In this document: positions 7,387 to 27,758 of the stretch, one piece after another
Numbering within the stretch: position 1 is the stretch's first letter
Layout of the letters: every line of letters starts with the position of its first letter
Source: Gemmata obscuriglobus
GTDB taxonomy: Bacteria > Planctomycetota > Planctomycetia > Gemmatales > Gemmataceae
Assembly: GCF_008065095.1 (NCBI RefSeq)
Contig: NZ_CP042911.1
Span: forward strand, 8,460,001-8,492,000
Length of the DNA stretch: 32,000 nucleotides
Direction of reading: 5' to 3'
Translations under genes and position numbers: made by a program
Notes under the pieces: model-generated
Databases searched by the model: none
What the model was told of the DNA's origin: nothing
Seen by the model: the letters and a program-made list of their open reading frames with translations, nothing else

Positions 7387-7519
7387 CGGTGTTTCGGTCT
7401 CCTACGCGAGCCGCGCGTTCGCCTGCTCGTCGGGCGTTTGCGGGCTGTGCGGTGGTTTGTGCTGTTTGTTCAACTCAACTTCCCTCAGCGCGTCAGTGAT
7501 CCAGGCGGCCTTCTCAGCC

Positions 7520-10500
7520 TCACTCGCCGGGGCGTCGGGTGAGGTTGTCGAGCGTGCTTCGGATCGCTTTCTTTGCGTTTTCGAGCGTTTCGGCGCGGGC
7601 ACGGTCCTTCTCCTTTTTGGTCTTGGCTTTCTTCATCTGCACGGCGCCGGCGTCGAGCGCATCGGAGATCGCACCCTTGCGGTTCGCCAGCAGGTCGTAT
7701 GTGTTACTGTGCGACTCCAACTCCTGAGCGCGGCGCCTGTTCTCGTCGGTGTTGAGCGAGTTGCCCGCGTCGGCTACGCGACCGGCCCGGCGCGTGCTGG
7801 CGACGGCGCGGAAGTCGTTCAGCTCCTGGGCGAGGGCGCTGCGCACGTGTCCGGCCAGCTCGGCGCGCTCGACGAAGGTATCGTCCTCGCTCTCCTCGTC
7901 ACCCCACAGCGTGCTGTTGACGGTGGTGACGGCGGGCACGGCCGCCATCTGTCGGGCCAGTTCTTCGACGGTCCGGTTCGACAGGTCCTTGCCGCTCTCT
8001 TCTCGCTTGTCGAGCAGCTTGAACAGCTTCTCTTGCCGGTCCGGGTTGTCGAGGTGCTTTGCTACGGCCAGAGCCTTTTCCGGTTCCAGCGTGCCGCGTG
8101 CAACGCGATCAAACGCCTTGTCGTTGAGCTTGGTCATGGTGGCCGCATCCTCGGCCAGCTTGCCTTTCAGGCTCACCCCGTGCTTCTCCAAATCGGCCGG
8201 GCTGACCCCCATGTCCCGCATGAACTTCGCCGCATCAACGGCGGTGCCGCGGCCCTCCGCGATGTTGATCAACGCCCCTTTCGCGCGAGCTTCGCGCGCG
8301 TCCTTGGCTTGGAGGTAACGCACAGCCAGATCCGGGTGACCGGTGCGCGCCGCGAGCTCGTGCCGGTGGTGGCCGTTGACGATGTACGTTTCTCCGTCCG
8401 CCGGATCGCGCCACACGCTGACCACCCCCGCGAACTCGGGGTTGAACGATTTCACCCCTTCAAGTTCCTTCGTCACGCCGGCCGGGTTGTTGGTGTTCAG
8501 CTTGAACTGAAAACGTCCCGGGTCCACCTTCAGTTCGTGGGTCGGCACAGTCCGCACCTCGCCGGGCTTCGGCGGCGCGTTCGCCGGTGCGGCCGGAGCG
8601 GTCTGCGCGCCCTGCTGGCGGACGTGCTCGACCAGTCGGCTTGCGAGCGCGGCTTTGCTGCCGCCGATCTTCTGCCGGAACTCCAGGTTGAGCGCCCGCA
8701 GGTCTTCTTTCGACAACCCGGCCGCGTGGTCAGCCAGCGCTTTGACGTCTGCCGCGCTCAGGCTCGACGGATCGGCCAGCGCGCGCGAAACGACGTGATC
8801 CGCGCCGCGCTGCTGTGGCTGAGTGTTTTGAGCCACTCCCGCCCTCACCCAGCGCTTCACCTGATTGCCGTTGCGATCGGTGATGGTCATCAGCGTGAGA
8901 CCGGCCCGGGCCTCGGTGCTGAGCAGCGCGTACAGCGCCTCACTCACCCACTCGTGACCTTCCGCGGTGCGGCCGATGTGCTCGCTTGCGACCGATTCTT
9001 GATGACCGGTCTTCACGAGCCCCTTGATTGCGAGCTGCCGATCCGGCCCGCGCACCGGCTGACGCACCACTACCACCGCGTCACCGGTCCAGGCCGATGC
9101 GCCGTCAGCGGTGTGGTATAGCGCCCCGTCAAACTTCGTCGTCTGGCCGGCCTCCGGTCCCTCGAACGTGCCACCGAACCAGCGGATCACGTTCGCCAGA
9201 TGCTCGGCGACTTCGGGCTTGCCGTCTTTGATCGCGTCGCGGTGAACGGCTGCAAGGCGCTCGACGGTCGCGTGCCGCCGAGCTTCGGGCGAGAGCGGGA
9301 CCTGCTCGCCCGGCACGTTCCACGCGGCCGTTTCAAGGTAATCCCGCACGTCCTGTGTGGGCGCGGCCTCGGCAAGATGGTTCAGGTACTGTTTGTCAGC
9401 AGTGGGATGCTTTTTCAGCACCGCAGCGCTCGGTGCGCGGCTCGTGTTGCCGGTGTCCTTCTGGGGCGCCGGCGCGGGTACAACGTGGCCTTTCTTCAAA
9501 GTGAACCAGCGCCCGGAATCACCTTGCCAGGTCTCCCCCTCGCTCTTGGCCTCGGTGGCGATCTCGCTTTGCTCGGCCAGCGCGGACCGCAACCCTTGCT
9601 CGACGGTCGCGGCATCCGGTGTGGGCGCCTGCACCCCGAGCTGCTCGTGCAGGTGCGCGAGCAGCTCGGCGATAATCTCCGCCCACTCGTTCACGCCGTC
9701 GGTCTCGACGGCTTCCGCCCGACCGCGCACCTGACCCGCCGCCCACGCGCCGGCCTTCACGATCAGTTTCGACGCGATCGAAGCCACCAGATGCCCGGAG
9801 ATCCCCACGCCGATCGTGTCGGCGAGGTTGGCACTGACAAAGTCGGCGTTGCGCGGGTTCGCGGTGCCGCTCGATGTGTTGGGGTTGTACCCCAACTTCC
9901 CGAGATCGCTGGGCGTGTCGAAGATGTCCGCCAAGAGGCTACCGAGCGCCGCGGTCTTGGGGGAGTTCGCGACCTTGACCGCCCAGATGTACGTTTTCGC
10001 CGCGGCGGTCAGAGCGACGTCTTTCGCCTTCGCCACCACAGACGCCGCCGGCCGCTCCGCTTCCGGCAGCGCGGCAACGGCCTGGTCGATGCCGCCCGTG
10101 ATGTCGGCGCGGTCCTGGTCGGGCACCTGCTCGACGGTGCCATCTGCGCTGGGCTTCGTGCCCGCATCCGAGTTGCCCGCCTGGGGTTGGGCGACCTGCT
10201 TCCCGTCCACGTAATGCCGCTTCCGCCCCGCGGCGTCGGTGATGTCGCCGGTGAACTTCTCGCGCAGGATCTGCTCACCGAAGATGTCCGTCGGGTTTGG
10301 GCTGCTCCCATCCCCGCCGGCGCTGCCCGGCGGTGTCGAGGTCGGATCGGTGGGCGCGGGAGGTGCGCCCGGGGGAGGCGAGGCCGGAGGTAGTCCCCCG
10401 CCGCCCTGGTCTGGGAACTTGGCCTGCCACTCCGCGATGTCCTTTGCCACCTGATCGGGCTCGGCACCCGTCGATCGCATGAATTCGAGCGGGCTGGCGC

Positions 10501-11917
10501 ACTTCTGCTGGTACAGCGAAAGGAACGTCCGCGCCTTCTTCTCCTCGTCCGCGATCACCACCGGGCCGGCAGTGGCGACCGGTTTGACGCGCTTCGAGGT
10601 TCCCCGCGCTAACCGGCCCGAGCGCTCGCAGAACTCGAGTACGCGCGTCGCCACCCGGCACGCGAACGCCTTCACCCGTTCCTGCCGCCCCTGTGTCAGC
10701 CGCACGAACGGCGACCCCGTTACCAGCACGCTGGCGAAGCTCGCGTCCCCTTCGCCGCTGAAGTAGCTCGGGCACCCCCAGCGGAACCCGACGCCCTTCA
10801 ACACCAACCGCTCAACGGTCTCGAACCCGGCCGTACCGCTCGACACCGGCCCCGGTTTCACCTCGCGCCCGCCCTCGGTGCGCACGACGGTTCCCGCCTC
10901 GTAACCCGTCACACTGGTCGATGAGCCGGGGTTGCCCGCGGGCTTAACGCGGCTGTAGTCCTCGCCCATCCGAACCGAGTTGATGACCTGATCGAGAGTC
11001 GCGTTGGGGTACTGCTCCCACCACGCGATGGCTGCTTGCACCCGGGCCACGTGGGCCATGTTGTCGAGCAGCCCCAGCACCTTCCGCAACTGCTCGCCCA
11101 CCGGGAAGAAATCGGACAGCCCCCGCTTCACCGTGCGGTCCACGTTGGCCTTCATCCGCACGTACTCGGACGACGCCACCTGCCGCCCCCGTGACACGTT
11201 GGCCGGATCGCAGAGCCAGAGGCCTTCTTCGCGCTCGTCGTCGCCCTCGGCGGTGATCACTCCCCACCCGAACGGGTCCAGCGTGCTGTGACCGTCGGGG
11301 GTGCGGATCAACTCCGGCTCGATGTGACGCACATAGGGCAGCCCGTCCGATGTGTCGTCGCCCACAAAGAACCGCAGCGTCGTTTCACCCTCCACGATGA
11401 GCCGCCGCCGACATTCCTCCTCGCGATCCTCTTCACCTTGCCCCCACTCTGCGAACTCGCACCACTCCTCCCACAGCGCGAGGCACGCTTTCGCCACCGC
11501 TTCGGCCTGCGCGTCGCCCCGCCGGCGCGGCACGAACGCCAGTTGCATCGAGCCGACGAAGTTGGAGATGTGGTCGCGGAACCCGAGCGCGAGGTGATTG
11601 CGGATGCACAGGTCACGGGCCAGCGCCACATGCTGCCGCCACTCGTCTTCGTTCAGGTACGAGAGGGGCGCTTTGGTGCGGTCCTGGGTGCGCTGCGCCG
11701 GGCGGTTCACACGCCACGAGCCGTAGCCGGGGAAGCCATCGCCGGCGTCCAGCCAGTCTTGAGGCGAGAGTAGGTTGTCGAGTGACAGGAGGGTTTCTTC
11801 GAGCCGCCGCACCTTGGCCGCGTGCTCACGCTTCAACTGCGCGAGCGATGCCGACTCGACGGCCGGAGCGCCGGGGAAGTGATCGGATACGCTCAGCGTG
11901 ATGGCGGCAGGGTACAT
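7520..11917 (-). CDS. Giant portal-fusion (polyvalent-type) protein, 1465 aa: portal-slot N-terminus, low-complexity linkers, SAP-like motif, ParB/Srx-like domain, charged helical tail
   Basis: A single uninterrupted ORF with its ATG at 11917, in the portal position between the terL region and the protease. The C-terminal region has a ParB/sulfiredoxin-fold signature (…HELKVDPGRFQFKLN…FAGVVSVWRDPADGETYIVNGHHRHELAARTG…, about nt 8263-8563). This is preceded by LSKEDLRALNLEFRQKIGGSKAALASRLVEHV (about nt 8621-8716). P/G/A-rich linkers such as GGGGLPPASPPPGAPPAPTDPTSTPPGSAGGDGSSP separate the parts. Confidence 0.8.
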   Translation of the reverse strand: MYPAAITLSVSDHFPGAPAVESASLAQLKREHAAKVRRLEETLLSLDNLLSPQDWLDAGDGFPGYGSWRVNRPAQRTQDRTKAPLSYLNEDEWRQHVALARDLCIRNHLALGFRDHISNFVGSMQLAFVPRRRGDAQAEAVAKACLALWEEWCEFAEWGQGEEDREEECRRRLIVEGETTLRFFVGDDTSDGLPYVRHIEPELIRTPDGHSTLDPFGWGVITAEGDDEREEGLWLCDPANVSRGRQVASSEYVRMKANVDRTVKRGLSDFFPVGEQLRKVLGLLDNMAHVARVQAAIAWWEQYPNATLDQVINSVRMGEDYSRVKPAGNPGSSTSVTGYEAGTVVRTEGGREVKPGPVSSGTAGFETVERLVLKGVGFRWGCPSYFSGEGDASFASVLVTGSPFVRLTQGRQERVKAFACRVATRVLEFCERSGRLARGTSKRVKPVATAGPVVIADEEKKARTFLSLYQQKCASPLEFMRSTGAEPDQVAKDIAEWQAKFPDQGGGGLPPASPPPGAPPAPTDPTSTPPGSAGGDGSSPNPTDIFGEQILREKFTGDITDAAGRKRHYVDGKQVAQPQAGNSDAGTKPSADGTVEQVPDQDRADITGGIDQAVAALPEAERPAASVVAKAKDVALTAAAKTYIWAVKVANSPKTAALGSLLADIFDTPSDLGKLGYNPNTSSGTANPRNADFVSANLADTIGVGISGHLVASIASKLIVKAGAWAAGQVRGRAEAVETDGVNEWAEIIAELLAHLHEQLGVQAPTPDAATVEQGLRSALAEQSEIATEAKSEGETWQGDSGRWFTLKKGHVVPAPAPQKDTGNTSRAPSAAVLKKHPTADKQYLNHLAEAAPTQDVRDYLETAAWNVPGEQVPLSPEARRHATVERLAAVHRDAIKDGKPEVAEHLANVIRWFGGTFEGPEAGQTTKFDGALYHTADGASAWTGDAVVVVRQPVRGPDRQLAIKGLVKTGHQESVASEHIGRTAEGHEWVSEALYALLSTEARAGLTLMTITDRNGNQVKRWVRAGVAQNTQPQQRGADHVVSRALADPSSLSAADVKALADHAAGLSKEDLRALNLEFRQKIGGSKAALASRLVEHVRQQGAQTAPAAPANAPPKPGEVRTVPTHELKVDPGRFQFKLNTNNPAGVTKELEGVKSFNPEFAGVVSVWRDPADGETYIVNGHHRHELAARTGHPDLAVRYLQAKDAREARAKGALINIAEGRGTAVDAAKFMRDMGVSPADLEKHGVSLKGKLAEDAATMTKLNDKAFDRVARGTLEPEKALAVAKHLDNPDRQEKLFKLLDKREESGKDLSNRTVEELARQMAAVPAVTTVNSTLWGDEESEDDTFVERAELAGHVRSALAQELNDFRAVASTRRAGRVADAGNSLNTDENRRRAQELESHSNTYDLLANRKGAISDALDAGAVQMKKAKTKKEKDRARAETLENAKKAIRSTLDNLTRRPGE

Positions 11918-12653: not shown

Positions 12654-14266
12654 GTTCCGCCTCCCACCAGCTCCTGGAGCCGAATCACTGCCGTCGCCAG
12701 CGCGTCGGGGCCGTCGTCGTGGTCGCCGTTGAACAGGTCGCGCAACTGGTCGACCAGCATCCGGCCCCCGACGGTGTTCCGAACGCGCAACTGGCCGCGG
12801 CGCAGGTAATCGTTGAGCACGCGGATGCGCGTCTCCTTCTTGATGACCTGTGTGCGTTCGGTGTAGGTGAGCATGACCGGGCGGCCAGCCTCGCGCCGCT
12901 CACGCAGGATCTGCTCCGCGGTCGGCCGAAACAAGCCCATCGTGTTATTCACCTCGGCGACCAGTTCCAGCGGCCCCCAGCTCGCGGCGAGGTCGATGGC
13001 GCGCTCCACCCAGCCCGGCTCGCGGCGCATCTCGCAGTCCACGTACAGCAGCCCGAACCGGGACAACCCGAGTTGCACGTGAGCCTGAAAGTCGCTCTTG
13101 TCCGAGTTGCCCTTCGACGGGTCGAGGGACTGGAGTTTCAGAACGATGTCCGTGGGCCACTGCTCGAACCAAAGGTCCGTGCGGTCGAACAGCTCCGCGG
13201 GCCACTCGGCCCCCTCGATCGTGCCCGGAACGCCTTGGTACTCCGTCTCGAAGCCGGACGCCCCGATCGTCGCGCGCAGCAACATCAGCTCGACCAGCGG
13301 CCAGCGCTGCGGCCAGTACACGCGCGCCCCCCGGTCCATCGCCGCCTTGCGTGCGGCGTAGTACGCCCGGGCGGTCTCTTCGCGGTTGGGGTCGGCGAGG
13401 TTCGATGCAAGGCGCGCGAACTCCGACCAGCTTTCCATGTCATCGGGCCAGCGGTGAACGGCTCGGAACGTCCGGCCGGTCCACCCGGGCAGTTGCCCGA
13501 TGCGCACCGCGACGGCCTCACGATGGAGCGCGCTGCCGACCGCCAAGAAGTTCGTTCGCTCGTCGCCCGCGGGCATCACCTCACGCGTCGCCCACTGCCA
13601 CGCGCGGGCGCGCTTCACGGGGCTGGTCACGTCCTCGTTGTTCTGAATGTCGTCGAAAATGATGAGGCTCGGTCGGTTGCTCCGGTTGCGGCGCCCGCGC
13701 ACCTTCTTGCCGGAGCCGAGGGCCTCGATCAGCGACCCGTTGCGGAGCCTCAAACGCGACTCCTTCCACTCCGGGCCGGTGCCCGTTGCTGTGGGGTAAG
13801 CCGCGCGAAGCAGGTCGTTCTCTTCCAGTTCCTTGCGGATGTGGCCCAACAACAGATCGGCTTGGTCGCTCGAATCGGACAGGATGAGCGTATAGGGCTC
13901 CCACTTCTCCAGGGCCGCGCGGAGCGGATAGGCTAGCGTGTTCCAGGTGCTCTTCGCCCCCCCACGGGGCGCAATGTAGCTCAACCGCGAACCGCGCCGC
14001 GTGTGCAGGCCGTCCAGGTCGCGCTCGAAATCGGCATGGAAATCGGCCGGGGGGAACCGACCGAAGTATTCCGGCAGAAACTGGCGGTTCCACGCACCGG
14101 GGCTAAGTGTCCCGGCCTCCCACTGCCGCAGCGCGGCGACGAGGTCCGCGACGGCGTCAGGTGGAAGGGCCGACAATTGCTCGTCGAGCTGCTGCGAGGA
14201 CAGCGCGCTTATCGGCGTCGGTGAGCTTCGACGTGTCGATTTTGGGCCGGTCCTGGTGCGGGCCAT
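12650..14266 (-). CDS. terL: Terminase large subunit
   Basis: Walker A (YIAPRGGAKST) and Walker B (PSLIIFDD) motifs, plus a C-terminal nuclease-like region (…LDPSKGNSDKSDFQAHV…GDHDDGPDAL). It follows terS. The start is uncertain: the ATG at 14266 overlaps terS by about 110 nt, and a TTG at 14176 is an alternative. Confidence 0.85.
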   Translation of the reverse strand: MARTRTGPKSTRRSSPTPISALSSQQLDEQLSALPPDAVADLVAALRQWEAGTLSPGAWNRQFLPEYFGRFPPADFHADFERDLDGLHTRRGSRLSYIAPRGGAKSTWNTLAYPLRAALEKWEPYTLILSDSSDQADLLLGHIRKELEENDLLRAAYPTATGTGPEWKESRLRLRNGSLIEALGSGKKVRGRRNRSNRPSLIIFDDIQNNEDVTSPVKRARAWQWATREVMPAGDERTNFLAVGSALHREAVAVRIGQLPGWTGRTFRAVHRWPDDMESWSEFARLASNLADPNREETARAYYAARKAAMDRGARVYWPQRWPLVELMLLRATIGASGFETEYQGVPGTIEGAEWPAELFDRTDLWFEQWPTDIVLKLQSLDPSKGNSDKSDFQAHVQLGLSRFGLLYVDCEMRREPGWVERAIDLAASWGPLELVAEVNNTMGLFRPTAEQILRERREAGRPVMLTYTERTQVIKKETRIRVLNDYLRRGQLRVRNTVGGRMLVDQLRDLFNGDHDDGPDALATAVIRLQELVGGGT

Positions 14267-14786
14267 CTTCTTTGAGCAACCCAAAGTGCTTCGAGAGGAT
14301 TTCGAGCGCCCGCAACTTGTCCCAGCGCTTCACCTTCACCGTCCGGACGATGTTGACCTTCAAGCGCGCCCGCTTCAACTCGCCACCGTGGGCCTGCGGC
14401 TCGCGGCTTTCTTCCGGCTCTGAGTCGTCGGCCGCGAACTCCTCCTCGGTCTCGACCGCCGCAACGGTGGCGTCCGTTGCCTCGTCCCATTCGGTCGGCG
14501 GCTTGAAGGTGCCGTCGTCGCGGTACAGCGACTTGTTGCGCTGGAACGCGATCAGGCCAAGCTCTCGGATGACGCGCTGAGGGGTGATGCCGTCCGCCGC
14601 GGCCGCGGCATCGAACAGTTCGGCCACCCTCTTCGAGATGTCATCATTTGCTAGCAAACGTGGGGCATTCGCACGCGCCGCCGCACGGCTCGCTTTCGGG
14701 TACGCGTCCTGATAAGCATCGGTCGCGTTGAACTTCCGCGCGATGTACCGGACACAAAACAACTCTTGCTGTGCTGTGAGGGCCAT
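14157..14786 (-). CDS. terS: Terminase small subunit (Terminase_2/P27-like)
   Basis: The N-terminus MALTAQQELFCVRYIARKFNATDAYQDAYPKASRAAARANAPRLLANDDISKRVAEL fits the conserved terS HTH pattern (Q..F...Y....N...A...AGY). It has an ATG start with a GGAG SD. Confidence 0.85.
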   Translation of the reverse strand: MALTAQQELFCVRYIARKFNATDAYQDAYPKASRAAARANAPRLLANDDISKRVAELFDAAAAADGITPQRVIRELGLIAFQRNKSLYRDDGTFKPPTEWDEATDATVAAVETEEEFAADDSEPEESREPQAHGGELKRARLKVNIVRTVKVKRWDKLRALEILSKHFGLLKEDGPHQDRPKIDTSKLTDADKRAVLAAARRAIVGPST

Positions 14787-14790
14787 TTCG

Positions 14791-15531
14791 TTACTCCGTT
14801 GCGGCCTCCGCTTCGAGGTCCGCCAGGACCGCCAGCAACGAATCCATTAGCGGCCAGGAGTCGCCGCTAAGCGGCACCCCGTGACGGGACGCGATCCGTT
14901 CCAGGCGTGCGCGGTGGGGGCTGCGCAACAGATCCGGTAGCACGCCCGTCGGCTGCGGCGGAGCCGTTTTCGACGGCCGCTTCATGCACACGAGCCGGCG
15001 CATCGACTGCTCGAACGCCTTCAGCGTCCGGTCGAGCGGGGCAAGTGAACACCCCTGTTCAGCGGACATGTCTGTCGCCTTTGCCAGATCCTGAATCACC
15101 CGCGTCTGGCTTACACCTTCGGCGCGGGCAATGTCCCGCGTGCTGGCTCCGGCGGCGCGGGCGGTAACGACGCGTTGCAGCCGCCGGGCGCGCGAGGCTT
15201 CCTGCTCCTCGCGTGTGAGCTGCCGCCGGTCCACGTTGAGCGCCAAGCACTCCGCACGGGCCTGCTCGTCGGTGAGTGTGCCGCGGTGCTGAACCGGCAG
15301 GTCCAGCCCCATTTCGGCCGCGATGGTGATGCGGTTCGCCCCGTCAATGACGCACCGTTCACCCCAAACGGGGCTGTCGTACGTCACCACCCGCACCAGC
15401 ACTTTCTTGTGCTGGCCGATGGACACGCGTAGTTCCGCGGCCTCGCGCTCGGTGAGGGGCCGGATCAGGTCCGCGAAGGGCAACTGATAAAGCAGCCCGC
15501 AGGCGCGGACAATGGGCAACGAGTGAGCCAT
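14791..15531 (-). CDS. ParB-like nuclease/HTH domain protein (246 aa)
   Basis: ParB N-terminal pattern (…LPFADLIRPLTEREAAELRVSIGQHKKVLVRVV…CVIDGANRITIAAEMGLDLPV…) followed by an HTH (ASTRDIARAEGVSQTRVIQDL). It lies directly upstream of terS and next to the repeat block. Confidence 0.75.
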   Translation of the reverse strand: MAHSLPIVRACGLLYQLPFADLIRPLTEREAAELRVSIGQHKKVLVRVVTYDSPVWGERCVIDGANRITIAAEMGLDLPVQHRGTLTDEQARAECLALNVDRRQLTREEQEASRARRLQRVVTARAAGASTRDIARAEGVSQTRVIQDLAKATDMSAEQGCSLAPLDRTLKAFEQSMRRLVCMKRPSKTAPPQPTGVLPDLLRSPHRARLERIASRHGVPLSGDSWPLMDSLLAVLADLEAEAATE

Positions 15532-15556
15532 TGGCTTCCGGTTCGTACAGGGGAGG

Positions 15557-15745
15557 TTAGTGCCCGTTTGACGGGGCTGGCTTCACTTTGGTTCGTCGTC
15601 CGGCGGTGGGGTGCCGGTTGCCTTCAATGACCAGGAAATCGCCGCTGCCGCTCATCAGGGCCGTTGCCGCTGCCTCGGTCGGAGCGTCGCCCACCCGCTC
15701 CCAGCGGGCTCGCTTCACGTGGAGCTTCCGCCAGAGCACAAACAC
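15557..15745 (-). CDS. Possible small protein (62 aa); N-terminal part of track ORF 15557..15841 removed because it is built from 9-mer repeats
   Basis: Third-codon positions are mostly G/C by eye, which fits coding. The first 32 codons of the track ORF (MTAVTAMT…VTTAVTT) simply translate the GGTCACAGC repeats. The start used is a GTG at 15745. Confidence 0.3.
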   Translation of the reverse strand: MFVLWRKLHVKRARWERVGDAPTEAAATALMSGSGDFLVIEGNRHPTAGRRTKVKPAPSNGH

Positions 15746-15751
15746 CGGGGT

Positions 15752-16058
15752 GGTCACAGCGGTGGTCACAGCGATTTTTTCGCTATGGACACTCGGAACC
15801 CTTTGTTTTCTAGCCTTGGTCATAGCGGTCACAGCGGTCATAGGCTTTTAGAAGAAAGAGCTAAACACTTCCGTGGTCCGGTGCTCTCGGTCACCTCAGC
15901 CGAGACGACCGAGACGGCAGGCGGGCGGCGCCGTGTGTTCTCGGGGATAAGGAACGCTGCGCCCGCTGTGACCGCTGTGACCACCCCTTGCACCGCAAGC
16001 ACTTGCGGTGTCCATAGCGAAAAAATCGCTGTGACCGGGGAGCCGGTTCGGTGTGACC
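15752..16058. repeat. Iteron-like repeat block: 9 copies of GGTCA(C/T)AGC in two opposed clusters, a 29-bp perfect inverted repeat, an AT-rich patch and a 9-bp palindrome; candidate ori or ParB/terminase binding region
   Basis: Forward copies lie at 15752, 15764, 15818, 15827 and 15836. Reverse copies (GCTGTGACC) lie at 15965, 15974, 16028 and 16050 (one mismatch). The 29-bp inverted repeat ggtcacagcgattttttcgctatggacac is at 15764-15792 and 16008-16036. The AT-rich patch ttttagaagaaagagctaaacactt is at 15846-15870, and the palindrome caccgcaag-ca-cttgcggtg is at 15991-16010. Confidence 0.85.
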
Positions 16059-16059
16059 A

Positions 16060-18801
16060 CTACGGTGGAACGTCCTGATCGGGACTCCACCCGGACGAGT
16101 CCCGGCGCTTCCGGTCGTACTCACCAAGCAAGATGTCCGGCCGGCCCCCCTCGCCCCAGGACACGCCGGCGTACACCTGCTCGCGGTCCCGGCCGACCCG
16201 CTTCCGGACTTTGGTGACGCCCTTGAACACCTTCCGCAGCTCGACGCCGAAGTTCGCGTCGTTGAGCGAGAGGAACTTGCGGGCGCGGCACCACTCCACG
16301 TAAGCGGCGTACACCTCAGTGGTCCGAACCGTCTTGTCCGCGTCCGCGAGCTGGAGATGATCCTCCAGAAACTGCCGATGCGGGTTGCAGATCTCCCGGT
16401 GCTCAGCCTTCGCCGTCTCGCCAACCTTGGACGACGAAAACCCGCCCTGCTGGTACAGCCGGTGCAGCCCCGCGAGCGCCCAATTCAGCACGCCGGGCAG
16501 CTCGCCGGACGCGATCCACCAACCGGGGTCGCTCATCCCGTGAACCTTCTCGCCGTCGGTGATCACAGTCGTGAACGGCACCAACTGGTAACGCCGCCAA
16601 ACGCCCTCCGACCGGTCCGCGAACCGCGGCAGGGTGTTCGTCGAGAGGAGCAGCCGGGCCGTGGGCCGGGCCGAAATCGGGGCCTTGTTCTTCCGGTCGA
16701 AGCTCATCAGGTCCGCGCCGACGAAGCTCTTCAACTTCGCCTCCGCGACCTTGTCCAGTTCCCCGACCTCGGCCACCGCATTGACCAGCTTCCCGAGCGT
16801 GACGCCGAGCGCGAACCGCTCGCCGAACTCCTCCAGCGGCACCGACGCGTAGTTGTGGTCACCGATCAGCGCCCGAAGGACCGCCAGGAACGTGCTCTTC
16901 CCGTTCGACCCCTCGCCGGTCAAAACGAAGAACTGCTGGAATCGGGTGTCGAACCGGAGCAGGTAACCGGCGATCTCCTGCAGAATCAGTTGCCGCTCGC
17001 GGTCCCCGTCAGTGACGCGCTCAAGGAACGAATCGAACCGCGGGCACTTCGCGGAAGCGTCAAAGGCAACCGGGATCGCGGCCGGCGTGAAGTACAGCGG
17101 GGTGGCGGGCACGAGTGTCGGGGCGCCGCTGGCGAGCAGCTCGGCCACGTCGAGCAGCCCGTTGGCGCACGCGATGTACTCGCGCTGCTCGGCGGCCGGA
17201 CGCACGCGCGGAATCCGGTTCGGCCGGGGCGGATCGGCCGACAGCATCGCCGGCCAAGTGGTGTCAGCTTCGAGGTGAACCATCGACGCCGCGGCCGTCA
17301 CCGCGTTGCTGATCTTCCGCGTGTCGAGCTTCGGCACCGCGGGCCGGGCGCCCTGCCGGCCGCCGTGCTCCCAAGCCGCGACCGCGACCAGGTGCGCCGC
17401 CTCGCACTCGGCCCGCAGGATGTTCCAGCCGCGAAGATCGAAGTCGTTGTCCGCAACGGTGACGTACTTGCCCGCCCGCCATTCCCACCACTCGCCGCGG
17501 TGGTAAATGGCGGTCGGCAAGTCGCCCTGTCGGGGCACGAGCAGCCGCCCGAGCCGGTGCGGGTCCATGAACTCCTCGTGAACCGGTTCCTCGTCGCCCT
17601 CGCCGGCGGCCGCCCCGCCCTCCGGAGGGGCGGGGGAATCCGGTCCACCGACGACAGGGGCGGCCGGGCGCACGCGGCGCGGGGCATACCCCTCGTCGCG
17701 GAGCCGCTCGGCCAGGCGGGCGAAGTCGCCCCCAAACTCCAAATGGCAGCGGAGCCAGCTCGGGTTGAGCCCCTGGTTAAACGGGATGCCGGCCGCGTCG
17801 GTGAAGCCGTAAAAGAGCGGCACACCCGACACGACCATGATGTTGCCGCTCTTGTCGCCACCCTTGCCCGGACGGCGAAAGTCCCAGCGGGCACCCCGGC
17901 GCCCCGCATCGACCCAACCGTTTCTCTCCAGCATGTCCGCAACCGACCGCTCGGTAGCAGCCGCGTTGAACGCCGCAAACACGTCCGGACCCGAAGCACC
18001 TCCCGCGGCAACGGCGGTGCGGGTCACGCGGGCGGCACGAGGCGCCGGGGCGGGCCGGAGTTGCGGCGCCTGCGGGACTTCGAGCGCGTCCGGCGGGATC
18101 AGGTCCGTCGGGTCGCCGGTGAGCGAAAGCACGTGATCGACCGCCCGGGCACCGTCGAGCCAGTTCGAGCCGTCATACACCCGCGGCCAGAAATTGCGCT
18201 TGTGGTGCCGGCCCACCAGCCGGAGCCAGTTCCCGTACTTGGTGCTCTCGTTGATCTCGGTTTGCTTGGGGAACGTCTCCGGCATCTTGCCGAAGCCGAA
18301 CTGCGCGTAGTCGCGGACGAGCCAGCGCCCGAACGCGAACAGCGAGCTCCCGGCCACCGGATCGGCGAACAGGGCGAGCAGGTGATACCCGCCGGAGCCG
18401 TTGGATTCCGCGAGCACCGGGCGGAACCGCAACTCGACGAGTTGCGCGTAAACGGACAGAGCGAACCGCTCGTTCGCGGCCGGGTCGCACGGCTGACCGG
18501 GGTGCGCGTCGATGTCCACCCCGACCCATTTGCCGGTTCCGTCCGGCCCGATCGCGTGCAGCCCCATCACGTGCGGGGTGTCGATCGCACCGAAGTGACG
18601 GACGAGCCGGGCGTGATCAACGAACCCGGCCTGCGCCCCTCGGCTCGGCCGCGTCGTCCGCTTCACCTCGCCGTCGTCGCCGATGTAACACCCGCCGCAC
18701 CGGTCCGTGCGGTTCACGATGCGGAGCATCGCCCACCGGGCCAGGTCGTCGGCCCGCTGGCGCCACGCGGTCGCGTCGCTGCTTACCGTTTCGGTCACCA
18801 C
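16060..18801 (-). CDS. Bifunctional prim-pol / P4-D5-type primase-helicase (913 aa)
   Basis: The N-terminus is prim-pol-like (…HVMGLHAIGPDGTGKWVGVDIDAH…GSGGYHLLALF). The C-terminal part matches the P4-family primase NTPase region (…FFVLTGEGSNGKSTFLAVLRALIG…LVNAVAEVGE…FVGADLMSFDRKNKAPISARPTARLLLSTNTLPRF…WRRYQLVPF). The start is GTG. Confidence 0.85.
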   Translation of the reverse strand: MVTETVSSDATAWRQRADDLARWAMLRIVNRTDRCGGCYIGDDGEVKRTTRPSRGAQAGFVDHARLVRHFGAIDTPHVMGLHAIGPDGTGKWVGVDIDAHPGQPCDPAANERFALSVYAQLVELRFRPVLAESNGSGGYHLLALFADPVAGSSLFAFGRWLVRDYAQFGFGKMPETFPKQTEINESTKYGNWLRLVGRHHKRNFWPRVYDGSNWLDGARAVDHVLSLTGDPTDLIPPDALEVPQAPQLRPAPAPRAARVTRTAVAAGGASGPDVFAAFNAAATERSVADMLERNGWVDAGRRGARWDFRRPGKGGDKSGNIMVVSGVPLFYGFTDAAGIPFNQGLNPSWLRCHLEFGGDFARLAERLRDEGYAPRRVRPAAPVVGGPDSPAPPEGGAAAGEGDEEPVHEEFMDPHRLGRLLVPRQGDLPTAIYHRGEWWEWRAGKYVTVADNDFDLRGWNILRAECEAAHLVAVAAWEHGGRQGARPAVPKLDTRKISNAVTAAASMVHLEADTTWPAMLSADPPRPNRIPRVRPAAEQREYIACANGLLDVAELLASGAPTLVPATPLYFTPAAIPVAFDASAKCPRFDSFLERVTDGDRERQLILQEIAGYLLRFDTRFQQFFVLTGEGSNGKSTFLAVLRALIGDHNYASVPLEEFGERFALGVTLGKLVNAVAEVGELDKVAEAKLKSFVGADLMSFDRKNKAPISARPTARLLLSTNTLPRFADRSEGVWRRYQLVPFTTVITDGEKVHGMSDPGWWIASGELPGVLNWALAGLHRLYQQGGFSSSKVGETAKAEHREICNPHRQFLEDHLQLADADKTVRTTEVYAAYVEWCRARKFLSLNDANFGVELRKVFKGVTKVRKRVGRDREQVYAGVSWGEGGRPDILLGEYDRKRRDSSGWSPDQDVPP

Positions 18802-18849
18802 CGGCCGCCCTCGCCCACGTGCCCCACGTCCGGCCCACCGCCGCCCCCG

Positions 18850-19620
18850 TCACGCGTCGCCCGCGAGGTATCCCGGCACCTCCGCCAGCCCCAGCGCGTC
18901 CGCCACGCGCTGCCGACCGATCGCCACGTACGGCGCCTCGCACTCGATCGCCAGGCACCGCCGCCCTTCGAGCGCGGCCGCAACGGCAGACGTGAACGAG
19001 CCGGCGAACGGGTCCAGCACAAGCCCGCTCGCCGGCGCGATCTTCACCAACTCGCGCAGCAACTCGGTCGGCTTACCGGTCAAGTGGTGCTTATCGGCCT
19101 GCTTCACGCCGACCGAGTAGAAGCCCGGTAGCGGTGCGCCTTCGAGCGGCCGCGGCCCTTTCGTGCCCCACACCAGATACTCACACGATGACGTGAACCG
19201 CCCCTGTGTCGGCCTCGCGCCCGGCTTGTGCCACGGAACGATGCCGCGGTAGACCCACCCACCCGCCTGGATGGCGTCCACGGTCACGGGAAGCTGGCGC
19301 CAGTCGGCGAACACGCCGCAAATGGTTCCGGGCCGGGCCGCCCGTAAGCACTGAGCGAGCCACAGCGCCGACCAGTACCCGTAGGCGCGCTGGTCGCGGG
19401 TGTCGCCGGCAAACGCCGGGTACTCGCGCCTGGTGCCGGTCTGCTGGTACTTCTTGCGGACGCCGCTGATCTTGTCCCCGCGGGTGAACCCGCCGCTCGA
19501 ATACGGCGGGTCCGCGAGGACCAAATCGAACGCCTCGCTCGGCAGGTCCACCAGTACCGCCAGCGACTCGCCCTGAACGATCCGCACCGGTTCGGCCGCC
19601 GTTGGCAACTCGATCTTCAT
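18850..19620 (-). CDS. DNA methyltransferase, beta-class N6A/N4C (orphan)
   Basis: The DPPY catalytic motif comes early (DLVLADPPYSSGG) and the SAM-binding motif late (LVLDPFAGSFTSAVAA). No restriction endonuclease partner was recognised in the window. Confidence 0.85.
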   Translation of the reverse strand: MKIELPTAAEPVRIVQGESLAVLVDLPSEAFDLVLADPPYSSGGFTRGDKISGVRKKYQQTGTRREYPAFAGDTRDQRAYGYWSALWLAQCLRAARPGTICGVFADWRQLPVTVDAIQAGGWVYRGIVPWHKPGARPTQGRFTSSCEYLVWGTKGPRPLEGAPLPGFYSVGVKQADKHHLTGKPTELLRELVKIAPASGLVLDPFAGSFTSAVAAALEGRRCLAIECEAPYVAIGRQRVADALGLAEVPGYLAGDA

Positions 19621-19757: not shown

Positions 19758-20480
19758 TCACTTGGAAGCGACCGCCCGCCTCTTGCGTCGGTGCCGCAGT
19801 GCCCTGACGGCATGGGGATGAACGGATTGCGGCGTCACGTACGCAACGCTCTTCTCGCCAGTCGTTGAGCCCTCGCGGGCCTGAAGCATCTTGGTGGCGC
19901 CCGAGAGCATCAGCGACACCCACGACTGGCCGCGCCCCAGGTGCTCGGCCACGTCGTAGGTGCGGCCGTGCAAATCGGCGCGCAAGAGGTACGCGCGGAG
20001 TGCCTCCCCGTAGGCGGCGGGTACTCGGGTGCTGTACACCAGCACGGTATCCTCGCTCTCCACCTCCCAGCCCACCGGCAACTCGTCAGCCGGCAGCGTG
20101 TCGGCCACGGTCAGGTCACGCCAGTCGGCGGAACCCGAGGCCGGGGCGCTCGCATGCACCACGCTCGGCGCCCGGCCTTCGTTCCGGAGTCGCCGCGGAA
20201 TGCCCATGCCGCGACCGAGTTCGGTGCGGGCCATGTCGATCACGCGGCCGGTTGCGATCTGACGCGCCCACGATTCCCAGGTGCCCGATTCCGGCCGGTA
20301 CGACGCCGCCGCCTCGCACAGGGCGTACAGCGCCTCGGCCCGGTACTCCTCGACCAGCCCCGGGCACTTCCGGGCCATGCGGTTCGCCACCGACAACGCC
20401 AGCGCGATGCTTTCCGGCGCGCCGGCCAGATCCCGTTGCTCCGGCGTCAACGGGGGGCGTGTGTTCTGCGGCCATCCCAT
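19758..20480 (-). CDS. Sigma-70 family (group 4/ECF-like) sigma factor, phage-encoded (240 aa)
   Basis: The track ORF 19758..21047 is trimmed to the ATG at 20480, which has a strong GAGGAGGGTGAAT SD. It has a region 2-like segment (…YRAEALYALCEAAASYRPESGTWESWARQIATGRVIDMARTE…) and a region 4-like HTH (…GRTYDVAEHLGRGQSWVSLMLSGATKML…). Confidence 0.65.
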   Translation of the reverse strand: MGWPQNTRPPLTPEQRDLAGAPESIALALSVANRMARKCPGLVEEYRAEALYALCEAAASYRPESGTWESWARQIATGRVIDMARTELGRGMGIPRRLRNEGRAPSVVHASAPASGSADWRDLTVADTLPADELPVGWEVESEDTVLVYSTRVPAAYGEALRAYLLRADLHGRTYDVAEHLGRGQSWVSLMLSGATKMLQAREGSTTGEKSVAYVTPQSVHPHAVRALRHRRKRRAVASK

Positions 20481-20491
20481 ATTCACCCTCC

Positions 20492-21070
20492 TCAGATCCT
20501 GCGAACCAACGAGAAGACAACGAACGACCGCGGCACTTCGGGGAACTTCCCGGGCCTTAAGTGAACCGAACTCCAGATGTGGAGCGGCTCGAGCACCTTG
20601 TCCGGGATGAGCCTCCCGATCCGCGCCTCGGCGAGCGTGCCGGCGGTGAGCCGGTAGCCGTCGCGGACGTGCTCGGCGAGGACGCACCCGGCCGGGAACT
20701 TGCCGTCCTTGTCCCACTGCTCGAACAGCGATAGGACCGGCTCGCCCGGGGGCAGCTCGACGAACTTCCGAAGCGGCTCGCCCTGCGGCCGGCCGCGCGG
20801 TGGGGGCGTGTTCTCGTCGAAGTCGTCGGCCGGCTTCGGCGGGGGAGCGGTGACCGGCGCGGGTGCGGACGCCCGACCCGGGGGCGGGTCGTCGATGCCC
20901 GCGAGCAGGTCCGGAACGAACTGGCCGACCGACTTCGAGACGGGCGGCGGGGTCGCACCGGCGGGCACCCGCTCGGCGCAGGTGCGTTTGTGCTTCCCCC
21001 CTTTGGTCCGGCACACGTCGCCGGACGAAGAGCCGCACTTTGGGCACGAGATCAGGATGGGGTCACTCAT
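20492..21070 (-). CDS. Zn-ribbon protein (192 aa), hypothetical
   Basis: MSDPILISCPKCGSSSGDVCRTKGGKHKRTCAERV, then a Pro-rich linker and a C-terminal domain. Its ATG overlaps the stop of the upstream gene (ATGA). It ends 11 nt before the sigma factor gene. Confidence 0.65.
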   Translation of the reverse strand: MSDPILISCPKCGSSSGDVCRTKGGKHKRTCAERVPAGATPPPVSKSVGQFVPDLLAGIDDPPPGRASAPAPVTAPPPKPADDFDENTPPPRGRPQGEPLRKFVELPPGEPVLSLFEQWDKDGKFPAGCVLAEHVRDGYRLTAGTLAEARIGRLIPDKVLEPLHIWSSVHLRPGKFPEVPRSFVVFSLVRRI

Positions 21071-22159: not shown

Positions 22160-22311
22160 GCGCGGCCCTCACGCGTGCGCTGTTGGAGTCGCACCCGGAA
22201 CCGTTCGAGCACCGCGTCCGCTCGCGACCCGCCCGACGGCTTCGCGAGCGCCGCACGGGCGCACACGCCGATTCGTTCCTTGGCCCGCGGCTTGGCTGAC
22301 TTGATGCCCAT
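22156..22311 (-). CDS. Small basic hypothetical protein (51 aa)
   Basis: The ATG at 22311 shares one nt with the RNase H stop (TGATG). The sequence is MGIKSAKPRAKERIGVCARAALAKPSGGSRADAVLERFRVRLQQRTREGRA. The rest of track ORF 22156..22512 overlaps the RNase H gene. Confidence 0.35.
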   Translation of the reverse strand: MGIKSAKPRAKERIGVCARAALAKPSGGSRADAVLERFRVRLQQRTREGRA

Positions 22312-22781
22312 CACGTACCCCCTTTGACTCTCTTGGGTCGAACCGGCACGGGCTTCCCCGTCCGGCCCACGTAAGCGGCCTGACTCAACAGGTCCGCGTG
22401 CGTGTTCTGCTCGCGCGGCACCCACACCGCTTTCCACCGGCACCCGAGCGTTGTCAGGTACTCCAGGCACCGGTCCCGGCACTCGCGTAGGCGCTCGTCC
22501 CGGCACTCCCAATCGCCCGTGAGCTGGTTAATCACGAGTTGGGAGTCACCGAGGATCGTGATCCCGTCCGGCCTGATCCCGAGCGCGACCAGCGCGCCGA
22601 TTCCTTTCCCGCACGCCACCCACTCGGCGAAGTTGTTGGTCATCCGGGCGCCGGCCCCGATCACCCCGCACCCCGCGAGTGATTCGAGCGGCGCGTCGAG
22701 CCCCTGGGCGATCCACCCGAAGCACGCGACGCCCCCGGGGTTGAACGGCTCACACAGACCGTCGAAGAAAATCGTGATCAC
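22311..22781 (-). CDS. RNase H (type 1-like), 156 aa
   Basis: …ITIFFDGLCEPFNPGG…NNFAEWVACGKGIGAL…ILGDSQLVINQLTGDW…VPREQNTHADLLSQ fits the DEDD arrangement of RNase HI-like domains. The GTG start at 22781 overlaps the RHH gene stop (GTGA); the alternative start is at 22829. Confidence 0.75.
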   Translation of the reverse strand: MITIFFDGLCEPFNPGGVACFGWIAQGLDAPLESLAGCGVIGAGARMTNNFAEWVACGKGIGALVALGIRPDGITILGDSQLVINQLTGDWECRDERLRECRDRCLEYLTTLGCRWKAVWVPREQNTHADLLSQAAYVGRTGKPVPVRPKRVKGGT

Positions 22782-23002
22782 CCGCCGGCCTCCCGCTCCT
22801 GTTGCAACTGCTTCTTCCGCCGCCGCCACGTCCGCGACCGCTCCCGCTTCGCGCGCCCCTCCTCGACCAATTGCACGAGCAGGCTGGAAATCGTGTGCTC
22901 GCCCTGGAACCGGGTGCGGCTCTTCGCAACTTGCTCCTCAAGCCACGCGAGCAACTCACGCGGACAGCGGAACGTCACCCGGGGGCTACCCTCGCTCGGC
23001 AT
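22778..23002 (-). CDS. Ribbon-helix-helix (CopG/Arc-like) DNA-binding protein (74 aa)
   Basis: The track ORF 22778..23164 is trimmed to the ATG at 23002. MPSEGSPRVTFRCPRELLAWLEEQVAKSRTRFQGEHTISSLLVQLVEEG is a typical beta-strand plus two-helix RHH layout, followed by a basic tail. Confidence 0.6.
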   Translation of the reverse strand: MPSEGSPRVTFRCPRELLAWLEEQVAKSRTRFQGEHTISSLLVQLVEEGRAKRERSRTWRRRKKQLQQEREAGG

Positions 23003-26486: not shown

Positions 26487-26501
26487 GTGTATCTCAACCG
26501 C

Positions 26502-27698: not shown

Positions 27699-27758
27699 GG
27701 GCGGCGGCCGCACCTTGTCGCTTTGTGAGGCCGTTACAGGGCAGAACCGCGACCAAAG

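Follow-up and report, generated by a model that had tools for sequence, protein, structure and literature searches.

A mirrored iteron array at the 3′ end of a primase-helicase gene, a candidate replication origin in a Gemmata prophage

Introduction

The origins of the SaPI satellites contain a central AT-rich region of about 80 bp, the α protein of phage P4 uses its C-terminal domain for binding to short octamer iterons, and in SV40 and the papillomaviruses inverted short elements direct two hexamers of the initiator (large T antigen and E1, respectively) around the melting region. The SaPI Reps bind their iterons via a winged helix at the C-terminus. There are six to twelve of these iterons directly downstream of rep, divided equally between the two flanks of the AT-rich region, and each flank has two or more, oriented opposite to those of the other (PMC9371898). 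The origins of Gram-negative PICIs have the same layout, which has been functionally tested (PMC6092414). In the Sulfolobus plasmid pRN1, the origin is a stem-loop located just 3′ of the gene for ORF904 (PMC4234260).

Here, a repeat array of ~307 bp (15752-16058) is described from the window, by which the whole 32-kb stretch of Gemmata DNA that was analysed is meant. Judged from the comparison of sequences, the array probably serves an integrated tailed phage as its replication origin, to which the adjacent 913-aa primase-helicase would bind. This origin most likely belongs to a known kind, found here in an unstudied phylum.

Architecture of the repeat array

The word GGTCAYAGC occurs in eight exact copies in the 32-kb window, for which shuffling gives an expectation of 0.41 (not one shuffled sequence in 100 had as many as eight), and seven of the eight are crowded into 285 bp (15752-16036), namely at 15752, 15764, 15818 and 15827 on the + strand and at 15965, 15974 and 16028 on the - strand. 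The sole exact copy outside the locus, at 11285, is found within an ORF of 1465 aa. The repeat cluster reported in an earlier note on this DNA is thus real, and of the nine copies counted there seven proved exact, while those at 15836 (GGTCATAGG) and 16050 (GGTCACACC, - strand) are variants with one mismatch. The remaining features and the neighbouring genes are listed in Table 1.

Table 1. Positions in the window of the parts of the array and of the genes beside it
Feature	Position	Strand	Remarks
TerS gene	14157-14786	-	~1 kb downstream of the array
246-aa HTH protein	14791-15531	-	HTH-like only, weak match
Small ORF after the array	15557-15769	-	70 aa in the public gene call; GTG start inside an iteron
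Outermost distal iteron GGTCACAGC	15752-15760	+	exact copy
Distal 29-bp arm	15764-15792		composite palindromic site P2; 54 bp from the distal tandem, mirrors the proximal side
Distal inner tandem GGTCATAGC, GGTCACAGC, GGTCATAGG	15818-15844	+	9-bp phasing; inverted relative to the proximal tandem
AT-rich patch	15846-15870		28% G+C vs ~66% in the window; directly adjoins the distal inner tandem
Variable G+C-rich centre	15871-15930		dyad of the whole array at ~15900
Conserved box GTTCCTTATCCCCGAGAACACACGG	15931-15955	-	adjoins the proximal tandem; 24/25 positions identical in L001
Degenerate third copy of the proximal tandem	15956-15964	-	GGGCGCAGC
Proximal inner tandem	15956-15982	-	9-bp phasing; GGTCACAGC x2 (15974-15982, 15965-15973) + degenerate copy
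Hairpin/palindrome, 9-bp	15991-16010	-	CACCGCAAG-tg-CTTGCGGTG; between outer and inner proximal iterons
Proximal 29-bp arm	16008-16036		carries composite palindromic site P1
Outermost proximal iteron GGTCACACC	16050-16058	-	one mismatch; L001 has exact GGTCACAGC at the same offset
Primase-helicase, 913 aa	16060-18801	-	AEP primase, D5_N, SF3 ATPase (DUF5906), C-terminal winged helix

All motif positions obey a two-fold symmetry about ~15900. The iterons converge, with four or five copies per side in opposite orientation, and each half of the array consists of an outer iteron, a composite palindromic site, a gap of 54 bp and a 9-bp-phased tandem triple, the other half being its mirror image with the same outer-to-inner gap. 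Counted from the stop codon of the primase-helicase gene, the offsets are 2, 24, 78, 87 ... 216, 225, 234, 288 and 300, the iteron at 16050-16058 beginning one base past the TAG stop (16060-16062). The 29-bp perfect inverted repeat, with its T6 tract at 15775-15780 and A6 tract at 16020-16025, was found as the earlier note had described it; its arms are separated by 215 bp, no other inverted repeat in the window is as long, and the four that rank highest there all come from this locus. Each arm contains a second half-site variant, GTCCATAGC, so that the arm is a composite palindrome of the form GGTCACAGCGA-N5-TCGCTATGGAC; the - strand of P1 reads GGTCACAGCGA-TTTTT-TCGCTATGGAC (16036-16010).

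Two further elements seen earlier, the AT-rich patch and the palindrome at 15991-16010, were confirmed as well. In 100-nt windows the G+C content over the AT patch is 51%, the lowest of the region, and the rest of the array centre has 63-70%, the patch itself being 25 nt long and off-centre. It is a candidate unwinding element, and a promoter for the downstream genes could also be located there. Among relatives of low G+C content that share the iteron (L138, L145, L148 and L071), the corresponding position is strongly AT-rich, e.g. tttgttattttaattatttaaaaaag. The centre holds a local short inverted repeat (15885-15897 / 15902-15914). The palindrome, which appears on the forward strand as CACCGCAAG-ca-CTTGCGGTG, forms a hairpin with eight predicted pairs in four sequences, including two compensatory pairs and one wobble, and occupies the same place in L001, L006 and L008; it may act as terminator of the replication operon or as an auxiliary element of the origin.

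As a single strand, the region 15745-16065 folds at -95.4 kcal/mol (z = -11.4), which is an automatic result of the inverted iterons, and the potential stem is broken by non-complementary 25-nt spacers. A scan of 15300-16500 against Rfam, with E up to 1, gave no match; the array is therefore not a known RNA. Coarse GC and AT skews across the window were uninformative for an origin because all genes are on one strand.

The array is located at the junction of early and late genes, and the genes flanking it (for the primase-helicase, the 246-aa HTH protein and TerS) are those described earlier, all on the - strand. The 5′ end of the small ORF following the array overlaps the two outermost distal iterons, an overlap that counts against an origin, and an ORF of 94 aa is open through the distal half. 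The small ORF is 53% identical to its counterpart in L001, the conserved part of the protein starting no earlier than VFVLW (~15741); it has no conserved counterpart in the other array-bearing loci and gave no family match in Pfam, PHROG and NCBIfam scans, and the small proteins downstream in L001, L006, L009 and L012 belong to no Pfam or PHROG family. A coding feature of a conserved protein, named in the earlier note as what would refute a binding array, was rejected on both residue and frame changes: the residues before VFVLW vary with the iteron variant (VTTAVTT vs MDSAMDK), and in L006 the frame containing the iterons differs from that of the called gene.

Domains and fold of the primase-helicase

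The 913-aa protein matches DUF5906 (3.9e-17), D5_N and, weakly, AEP-TOTE in Pfam, the PHROG DNA primase family at 1.8e-76, and the C-terminal domain of P4-family primases (TIGR01613) with 183 bits at a cut-off of 108.7. A Toprim primase domain was searched for in the protein without a match. In correction of the earlier note, which drew on P4 α, the primase is of the AEP rather than the Toprim type. The only sequence match in the PDB obtained with phmmer was SaPI5 PriRep5 (7OLA, 3.9e-14), and the top Foldseek matches were ASFV PrimPol, PriRep5 (TM 0.69) and poxvirus D5/E5.

At the C-terminus, residues 809-870 match RFX_DNA_binding with 27.7 bits (cut-off 27). The AF2 model of the protein, with a pLDDT of 80.6, has a helix-helix-β-hairpin arrangement at 826-877, in which the predicted winged helix is formed by helices 826-840 and 847-857 and the β-hairpin 862-877 (pLDDT >80). 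This domain (about residues 800-885) can be aligned across all relatives. It is 75-86% identical within one iteron type and is the least conserved folded domain between iteron types (51-52% vs 79% for the ATPase), although the agreement of the C-terminal domain with iteron type is confounded by phylogeny.

Comparison with described origins

The closest resemblance is to the SaPI and PICI replicons, whose origins are proven by experiment (SaPIbov1, SaPI1, SaPI5 with PriRep5, and EcCICFT073 of E. coli), which likewise have an SF3 initiator with a C-terminal winged helix, and in SaPI5 the primase is fused to a self-loading SF3 helicase as in the window protein. Furthermore, the iterons lie immediately 3′ of the rep ORF, two opposed sets flank the centre, and an AT-rich stretch is a candidate melting site; the iteron sequence also varies between allelic Rep types (PMC9371898, PMC6092414). 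Several features are nevertheless particular to the window. Its iterons are 9 bp long as against 5-6 bp; in each half, 54 bp separate an outer composite palindrome from an inner tandem, and the array also includes a hairpin and a 25-nt box, both conserved. SaPI origins are AT-rich at the centre, whereas the centre of the window array is rich in G+C and its short AT patch lies to one side, which speaks against an origin. Moreover, the element is a complete tailed prophage, equipped with genes for terminase and capsid, rather than a satellite, and its host is a planctomycete.

With P4 α, the window protein shares membership of the P4 family (TIGR01613) and the union of primase, SF3 helicase and putative origin-binding protein. 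The P4 primase, however, is Toprim-type, and P4 requires a second cis element, crr, kilobases away, whereas no second iteron cluster was found in the 32-kb window. Toprim primases are present in some distant relatives with the same 9-mer (L138 and L145). In pRN1 ORF904, and in the BIP-1-type phages discussed with it, the same order of AEP prim-pol, SF3 helicase and winged helix is found in one protein, and a small terminator-like hairpin followed by a larger foldable structure lies 3′ of the gene. The pRN1 origin, however, is a stem-loop of ~100 nt whose sequence is not conserved and in which no iterons were identified (PMC4234260), whereas the conserved feature of the window is discrete iterons and its stem is broken by 25-nt spacers. 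SV40 and the papillomaviruses also use SF3 helicase initiators at their core origins, but the origin-binding domains of these are unrelated and N-terminal to the helicase, no primase is fused, and the origins are much smaller (about 64 bp).

Conservation of the array among relatives

Thirteen relatives were picked by protein similarity alone (23-77% identity), and 11 of them have opposed repeats at the 3′ end of the helicase gene. Together with the SaPI/PICI-like layout, this association makes a phage replication origin, the interpretation already preferred in the earlier note, appear the best supported. In L001, L005, L006, L008, L009, L012, L157, L158, L159 and L160 the opposed repeat sets begin within ~35 nt of the stop codon; the region of L004 ends at the contig end, and in L007 no array was found downstream of the helicase gene. 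Nor is there a comparable array downstream of the 29%-identical primase gene of the cultured phage 9NA, so the rule cannot be extended to all P4-family primases. The lack of an array in L007 and 9NA counts against an origin.

The repeat word differs by helicase clade and the architecture is constant. GGTCACAGC is used in the window and L001, GGTCACCC in L006 and L008, GGTCCWRGC in L009, GGTCCARGC in L012 and other words in L157-L160, while L005 has palindromic units of 61 nt. The offsets from the stop codon in L006 (4, 12, 67, 76, 85 ... 169, 187, 242, 251) are nearly superimposable on those of the window, and three GGTCACCCY copies occupy the position of the proximal inner tandem in L006 and L008. 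The box GTTCCTTATCCCCGAGAACACACGG is largely kept in these two loci despite their different iterons; within it, TTATCCCCG resembles a DnaA box at 7/9 positions, which is a lead only.

The comparison with L001, whose protein is 77% identical, yields a footprint in which, as the earlier note had proposed for such a comparison, the repeats are kept while their surroundings diverge. Iterons are 85-100% identical (26/27 positions in the distal inner tandem, 85% in the proximal one), the centre is 34% identical, with length changes (15866-15930), and the A/T spacers 0-29%. The half-sites of P1 are 100% identical, whereas its 5-nt A/T spacer is 0% identical, being flipped exactly from T5 to A5.

Beyond the sampled proteins, the same 9-mer is present in the IMG/VR contigs L138 and L145, whose helicases are only ~25% identical (P-loop region) and carry a Toprim primase, while Gemmata proteins of 65% identity use GGTCACCC instead. 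Specificity is not cleanly explained, the 9-mer being shared with these distant loci and not with the closer proteins, and this too weighs against an origin. A DNA search with 14700-18900 against 50,697 phage records gave no match, and no relative was found in an IMG/VR locus search with the primase-helicase protein. The 18-mer pattern was found at 141 loci, most of which have a single tandem pair and no opposed partner.

What follows the array changes from locus to locus: in the window and L138 it is terS, in L006 a pair of defence genes (AAA_21/RloB), in L008 and L160 an integrase gene and in L145 an endolysin gene. Among the loci compared, the helicase is the array's only constant partner.

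Alternative explanations

It is very unlikely that the array is purely regulatory, its repeats being operators through which a phage repressor or activator governs a late-operon promoter and its hairpin the early-operon terminator, with no role in replication. Such a role would suit the position between replication and late blocks on one strand, the conserved hairpin with compensatory changes after the helicase stop codon, the presence of TTCTAAAAG ahead of the distal triple and of the start codon that comes first downstream, and the sigma-like protein encoded by the prophage. However, a scan for sigma-70-type promoters was negative, and the downstream genes are unrelated between array loci, leaving no common regulated target. 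No candidate regulator besides the helicase co-occurs with the array, and two-fold symmetric arrays of at least nine sites over 300 bp are atypical of operators. The single terminator-like match (+ strand) consists of two iterons pairing before the T6 tract.

A pac or cos-binding region, with TerS bound to the clusters of repeats and the terminase cleaving in the interval, on the model of P1 pac or SPP1 pacL/pacR, is very unlikely. In the pac site of P1, two clusters of short repeats flank the cleavage site, and the array of the window is placed at the start of the late block, with terS and terL ~1 kb downstream of it; in L138, only ~190 nt separate an array of this 9-mer from the start of a Terminase_2 gene that follows it. 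Against this stand the lack of terS in the fetched flanks of arrays of the same architecture (L006, L008, L145 and L160), the TerS proteins of the window and L138, which are not detectably similar despite the identical iteron, and the anchoring of the array to the helicase stop codon rather than to terS. Since the array is located at the early/late junction and ~1 kb upstream of terS (directly upstream in L138), it may still serve in packaging or in late transcription, either additionally or instead.

Highly improbable is a parS-like centromere bound by the 246-aa protein, which the earlier note had called ParB-like. The gene is nearby, inverted-repeat arrays are typical of parS sites, and the protein has a weak HTH match as well as a DG-x-NR stretch recalling the N-terminal motif of ParB, but Pfam and NCBIfam scans returned no ParB model. 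Its homologues (52% identical) were confined to L005 and L007, where the array is of another kind or missing, and were absent from the fetched flanks of L001, L006, L008, L009, L012, L138 and L145. Binding by this protein or by TerS, both offered earlier as alternatives, is accordingly disfavoured, as neither protein co-occurs with the array across relatives. A selfish MITE-like palindromic insertion with 29-bp terminal inverted repeats and no phage function, suggested by the perfect repeats 215 bp apart, was rejected as hardly credible, there being no target-site duplication at the arm ends and no further copy in the window, with iterons lying beyond the arms (15752, 16050) and the position from the stop codon being fixed across relatives with differing repeats.

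Proposed mode of action and implications

If the array is the origin of the prophage, the C-terminal winged helix of the primase-helicase would bind the GGTCAYAGC iterons, and each of the mirror-image halves would nucleate one SF3 hexamer, so that the two hexamers would flank the centre and be oppositely oriented. The duplex would then open at the AT patch (15846-15870) beside the distal triple, and the N-terminal AEP domain would prime the exposed strands for extension in both directions by a host polymerase.

The 9-mer GGTCATAGC and the 2+3 / 3+2 layout accompany AEP-primase fusions in planctomycete prophages and Toprim-primase fusions in low-GC phage contigs. Furthermore, the two perfect 29-bp arms seem to change jointly in evolution, as the A/T spacers are flipped together between the window and L001, and such concerted evolution would suggest extrusion of a cruciform or hairpin in vivo. 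A bolder extension of the origin reading, which we regard as possible though rather doubtful, is that winged helix and origin form an exchangeable cassette predating the attached primase, and that the array extrudes as a cruciform or hairpin and may switch the phage from early to late functions. The last point is suggested by the late genes, which begin inside the distal half of the array.

The gene and its site of ~300 bp would together make up a candidate compact replicon of ~3 kb from a Gemmata prophage, defined by comparison alone. A replicative vector for Planctomycetes, which have none, could be developed from it, a self-loading primase-helicase with its own origin being an obvious starting point for vector building. 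The layout of SaPI/PICI type, known from satellites of Firmicutes and Enterobacteria, would also be extended to complete tailed prophages of a distant phylum. The iteron variants GGTCACAGC, GGTCACCC and GGTCCARGC, together with the alignable winged helices, provide material for studies of origin specificity and replicon compatibility. One Gemmata chromosome harbours two elements of this type, L005 and L006, whose repeats differ.

Repeats and organisation of the array

The 9-mer GGTCAYAGC, referred to as the iteron, is found eight times without mismatch in the 32-kb window, where dinucleotide-preserving shuffles predict 0.41 copies; none of 100 shuffles gave as many, and seven of the eight fall within 15752–16036. 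Of the nine copies that the earlier note placed in the array (the opposed repeat cluster of about 307 bp at 15752–16058), these seven are exact, and those at 15836 and 16050 are one-mismatch variants. The 29-bp perfect inverted repeat was confirmed and is the longest in the window; in a whole-window scan the top four inverted repeats all lay at the array locus. The AT-rich patch (28% G+C versus about 66% for the window) and the palindrome at 15991–16010 were present as described, and the observation is thus correct apart from the two near-matches. The sole copy of GGTCACAGC outside the array lies within a large ORF downstream of the terminase genes, for which no Pfam match was found, and is probably a chance occurrence.

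Since all genes here are on the minus strand, the array is most readily described along that strand, away from the primase-helicase gene. The stop codon is followed by the first iteron, the proximal 29-bp arm, which is a composite palindromic site (P1), a 9+9 hairpin, a proximal inner tandem of two exact iterons and one degenerate iteron in 9-bp phasing, a 25-nt box, a G+C-rich centre and the AT patch. The distal half mirrors this order: a triple of phased iterons, now oppositely oriented, is separated by a 25-nt spacer from the second composite palindrome (P2, in the distal arm), and one further iteron closes the array. Iterons start at offsets of 2, 24, 78 and 87, and then 216, 225, 234, 288 and 300, from the stop codon; the outer-to-inner spacing is 54 bp in both halves, and all motif pairs are symmetric about position ~15900. 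As the two 25-nt spacers hold matching positions in this symmetry but are unrelated in sequence, the placement of sites is conserved, rather than the halves being a simple duplication.

Features of the array and its surroundings (window positions)
Feature	Position	Strand	Remark
Copy of GGTCACAGC	11285	minus	inside 1465-aa ORF 7520–11917
246-aa HTH protein gene	14791–15531		
Exact iterons	15752, 15764, 15818, 15827	plus	motif match
Distal arm (P2)	15764–15792		
One-mismatch iteron	15836		GGTCATAGG
AT patch	15846–15870		
25-nt box	15931–15955		GTTCCTTATCCCCGAGAACACACGG
Exact iterons	15965, 15974, 16028	minus	motif match
Palindrome	15991–16010		
Proximal arm (P1)	16008–16036		GGTCACAGCGA-TTTTT-TCGCTATGGAC
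One-mismatch iteron	16050	minus	GGTCACACC; one base past stop codon
TAG stop codon of 913-aa ORF	16062–16060	minus	first element
DNA methyltransferase gene	18850–19620		just upstream of primase-helicase gene
Genes in early region	19758–21047, 22311–22829		
Tyrosine integrase gene	25104–26306		adjoins tRNA-Ile
tRNA-Ile gene	26415–26486		
Amidohydrolase gene	26442–27698	plus	probably a host gene
tRNA-Arg gene	27758–27827		

Linkage of the array to the helicase gene

The loci of 13 primase-helicase relatives (23–77% identity; loci of relatives carry L-numbers), retrieved with their surrounding DNA, provide the key test of the link between array and helicase, because they were picked without regard to any repeat. 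Opposed repeats were found at the 3' end of the gene in 11 of the 13. L001 (77% identity) shares both the iteron and its offsets with the window, L006 and L008 (64–65%) have a superimposable architecture with the iteron GGTCACCC(Y), and the iteron is GGTCCWRGC in L009 (47%) and GGTCCARGC in L012 (31%). In L005 (65%) a 61-nt unit, itself containing a palindrome, is present twice in direct and twice in inverted orientation, and L157–L160 (about 30–44%) have opposed repeats, each of its own sequence, straddling or past the stop codon. L004 ends at a contig edge; no array was present in L007, which has a convergent host gene. L005 and L006 share one Gemmata chromosome (ENA ERZ26867449 contig_1, 9.2 Mb), and while their primase-helicases are 65% identical, their 3' arrays are wholly different (61-nt palindromic units versus GGTCACCC), as would be expected for compatible replicons. 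In L005 (564–6706) and L007 (2132–6694) the primase-helicase is the final gene of a short block headed by a gene for a LexA-like (S24 peptidase) repressor, with host-like genes beyond the block; rather than full prophages, both seem to be small elements of satellite-like or remnant character.

When two tandem copies of the 9-mer were used as the search pattern, most matches were single, with no opposed cluster, and are probably unrelated. Where opposed clusters were found, they again lay at the 3' end of a helicase gene, both in L027, L037, L083 and L108, with proteins 27–30% identical to that of the window, and in the IMG/VR contigs L138 and L145, in which DUF5906 is fused to a Toprim primase and the protein is just ~25% identical to that of the window across the P-loop region. 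The lower-GC genomes found by motif have a strongly AT-rich stretch beside the distal inner triple, the position of the AT patch in the window. The window's 9-mer GGTCATAGC, in its 2+3 / 3+2 opposed layout, was seen in L138 (6800–7060), L145 (5470–5735), L148 (120–200) and L071 (370–600), in low-GC IMG/VR phage contigs, following Toprim-primase/DUF5906 helicase genes with proteins just ~25% identical to that of the window; this implies that the origin-plus-winged-helix module is very old or that the iteron sequence is constrained.

Beyond the array the neighbours change. The window has a small ORF (70 aa, public gene call), the 246-aa HTH protein, TerS and TerL; L008 and L160 have an integrase, L138 terS, L145 an endolysin, and the remaining protein-chosen relatives genes of no recognised identity. 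In L006 an AAA_21 ATPase and RloB pair (7480–9514), a candidate anti-phage defence system, stands directly past the origin-like array. Of all neighbours, only the helicase is constant. A packaging site, the terS alternative of the earlier note, is disfavoured, as most array-bearing loci lack TerS in the flanks retrieved, and the window and L138, identical in iteron, encode TerS proteins with no detectable similarity. The other alternative, a parS-type site of the 246-aa protein, is likewise disfavoured, since among the loci compared its homologues are confined to L005, where the array is different, and L007, where there is none; no ParB model in the Pfam and NCBIfam scans matched this protein, termed ParB-like in the earlier note, and its HTH matches are weak (PHROG 686; RovC_DNA-bd below cut-off). 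Around its residue 63, a DG-x-NR stretch recalls the ParB/Srx fold. Comparative data also speak against an operator and a MITE.

Conservation of the sites

Segment-wise comparison of the window with L001 gave 100% identity for the P1 half-sites, 96% for the 25-nt box, 90% for the hairpin (both changes compensatory), 85–96% for the inner tandems and 70–91% for the P2 half-sites, with 53% for the adjacent small ORF, 34% for the centre and 0–29% for the 5–7-nt A/T spacers within the palindromic sites. Eight hairpin pairs are kept in four sequences, with compensatory changes in two pairs and a wobble in one. A coding origin of the repeats was rejected: the overlapping part of the open frame varies with the iteron variant, not conservatively, and in L006 the iteron-bearing frame differs from that of the called gene.

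The 25-nt box is kept in L006 and L008 despite their different iteron, and TTATCCCCG within it shares 7 of 9 positions with the DnaA-box consensus TTATCCACA; the box could represent a site for a host factor, or else a fourth iteron in decay. The 5-nt A/T spacer (15775–15779 and 16021–16025) is T5 proximally and A5 distally in the window, and flipped in L001 (6841–6845 and ~7087–7091) to A5 proximally and TTTCT distally, between unchanged AGCGA/TCGCT stems. Both arms are flipped together and stay near-perfect inverted copies in each genome, which looks like hairpin-loop inversion with concerted evolution of the arms.

The primase-helicase and comparison with known origins

The 913-aa protein comprises D5_N and DUF5906 (SF3 helicase), an RFX-type winged helix (809–870) and a weak AEP primase match, and exceeds the threshold of the NCBIfam model for the P4-family primase C-terminal domain. 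Its close relatives are all from Gemmata. An AlphaFold model (18 relatives, pLDDT 80.6) has a helix-helix-beta-hairpin winged helix at 826–877, and Foldseek retrieved ASFV PrimPol, SaPI5 PriRep5 (TM 0.69) and poxvirus D5/E5; the sole PDB sequence match, 7OLA, is also PriRep5. The winged helix, alignable in all motif-chosen and window proteins (ELyAAYxxWC ... FGxxLRk ... RKxRpR ... vY.G), is the folded domain most diverged between iteron types (51–52% identity versus 79% for the ATPase) and is 75–86% identical within one type. This fits an iteron specificity set by the C-terminal domain, in a pattern not independent of phylogeny, and leaves unexplained the window's 9-mer in L138 and L145.

SaPI Reps bind iterons through a C-terminal winged helix and are self-loading, probably as two hexamers; their 6–12 iterons directly follow rep and are divided equally between the two flanks of an AT-rich region, at least two on each flank pointing in opposite directions (PMC9371898). 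The same two-set layout occurs in PICIs of Gram-negative bacteria, of which a pri-rep-ori segment was functionally tested (PMC6092414). The window array differs from SaPI origins by its 9-bp iterons, its bipartite half-origin with a 54-bp gap, its G+C-rich centre, where the AT patch is short and off-centre, and its position in a full prophage. ORF904 of pRN1 has the AEP, SF3 and winged-helix order of the 913-aa protein, and a small terminator hairpin comes before its origin, a stem-loop directly 3' of the gene (PMC4234260). The window array is predicted to fold very stably as a single strand (z = −11.4), although the inverted iterons by themselves account for this. The element departs from the P4 replicon type in its primase, which is not of the Toprim type, and in having no crr-like second iteron cluster in the 32-kb window.

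The earlier note took the array most likely for a phage replication origin, and the repeats, symmetry, conservation pattern, helicase-gene linkage and domain make-up observed here support it. From these features and the analogous systems, we consider it likely that the array is an origin recognised by the adjacent primase-helicase. By analogy, the protein would bind the iterons, a double hexamer would load, the duplex would melt at the AT patch and priming would follow. An additional role at the early/late junction is possible. The main value is practical, since the array and primase-helicase form a candidate minimal replicon; the phylum Planctomycetes is without replicative vectors (PMC11958385). 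The iteron variants among relatives offer a natural series for the study of origin specificity.

Prophage context

The window is identical to a stretch of chromosome record CP025958.1. With a capsid gene, and an integrase gene beside a tRNA-Ile gene, the element is a complete integrated tailed phage, and the integrase/tRNA region is likely the prophage end and attachment site. Products of the prophage early region include a 240-aa protein (public gene call) that matches sigma-70 region 2, and a protein with an RNase H-like RVT_3 domain.
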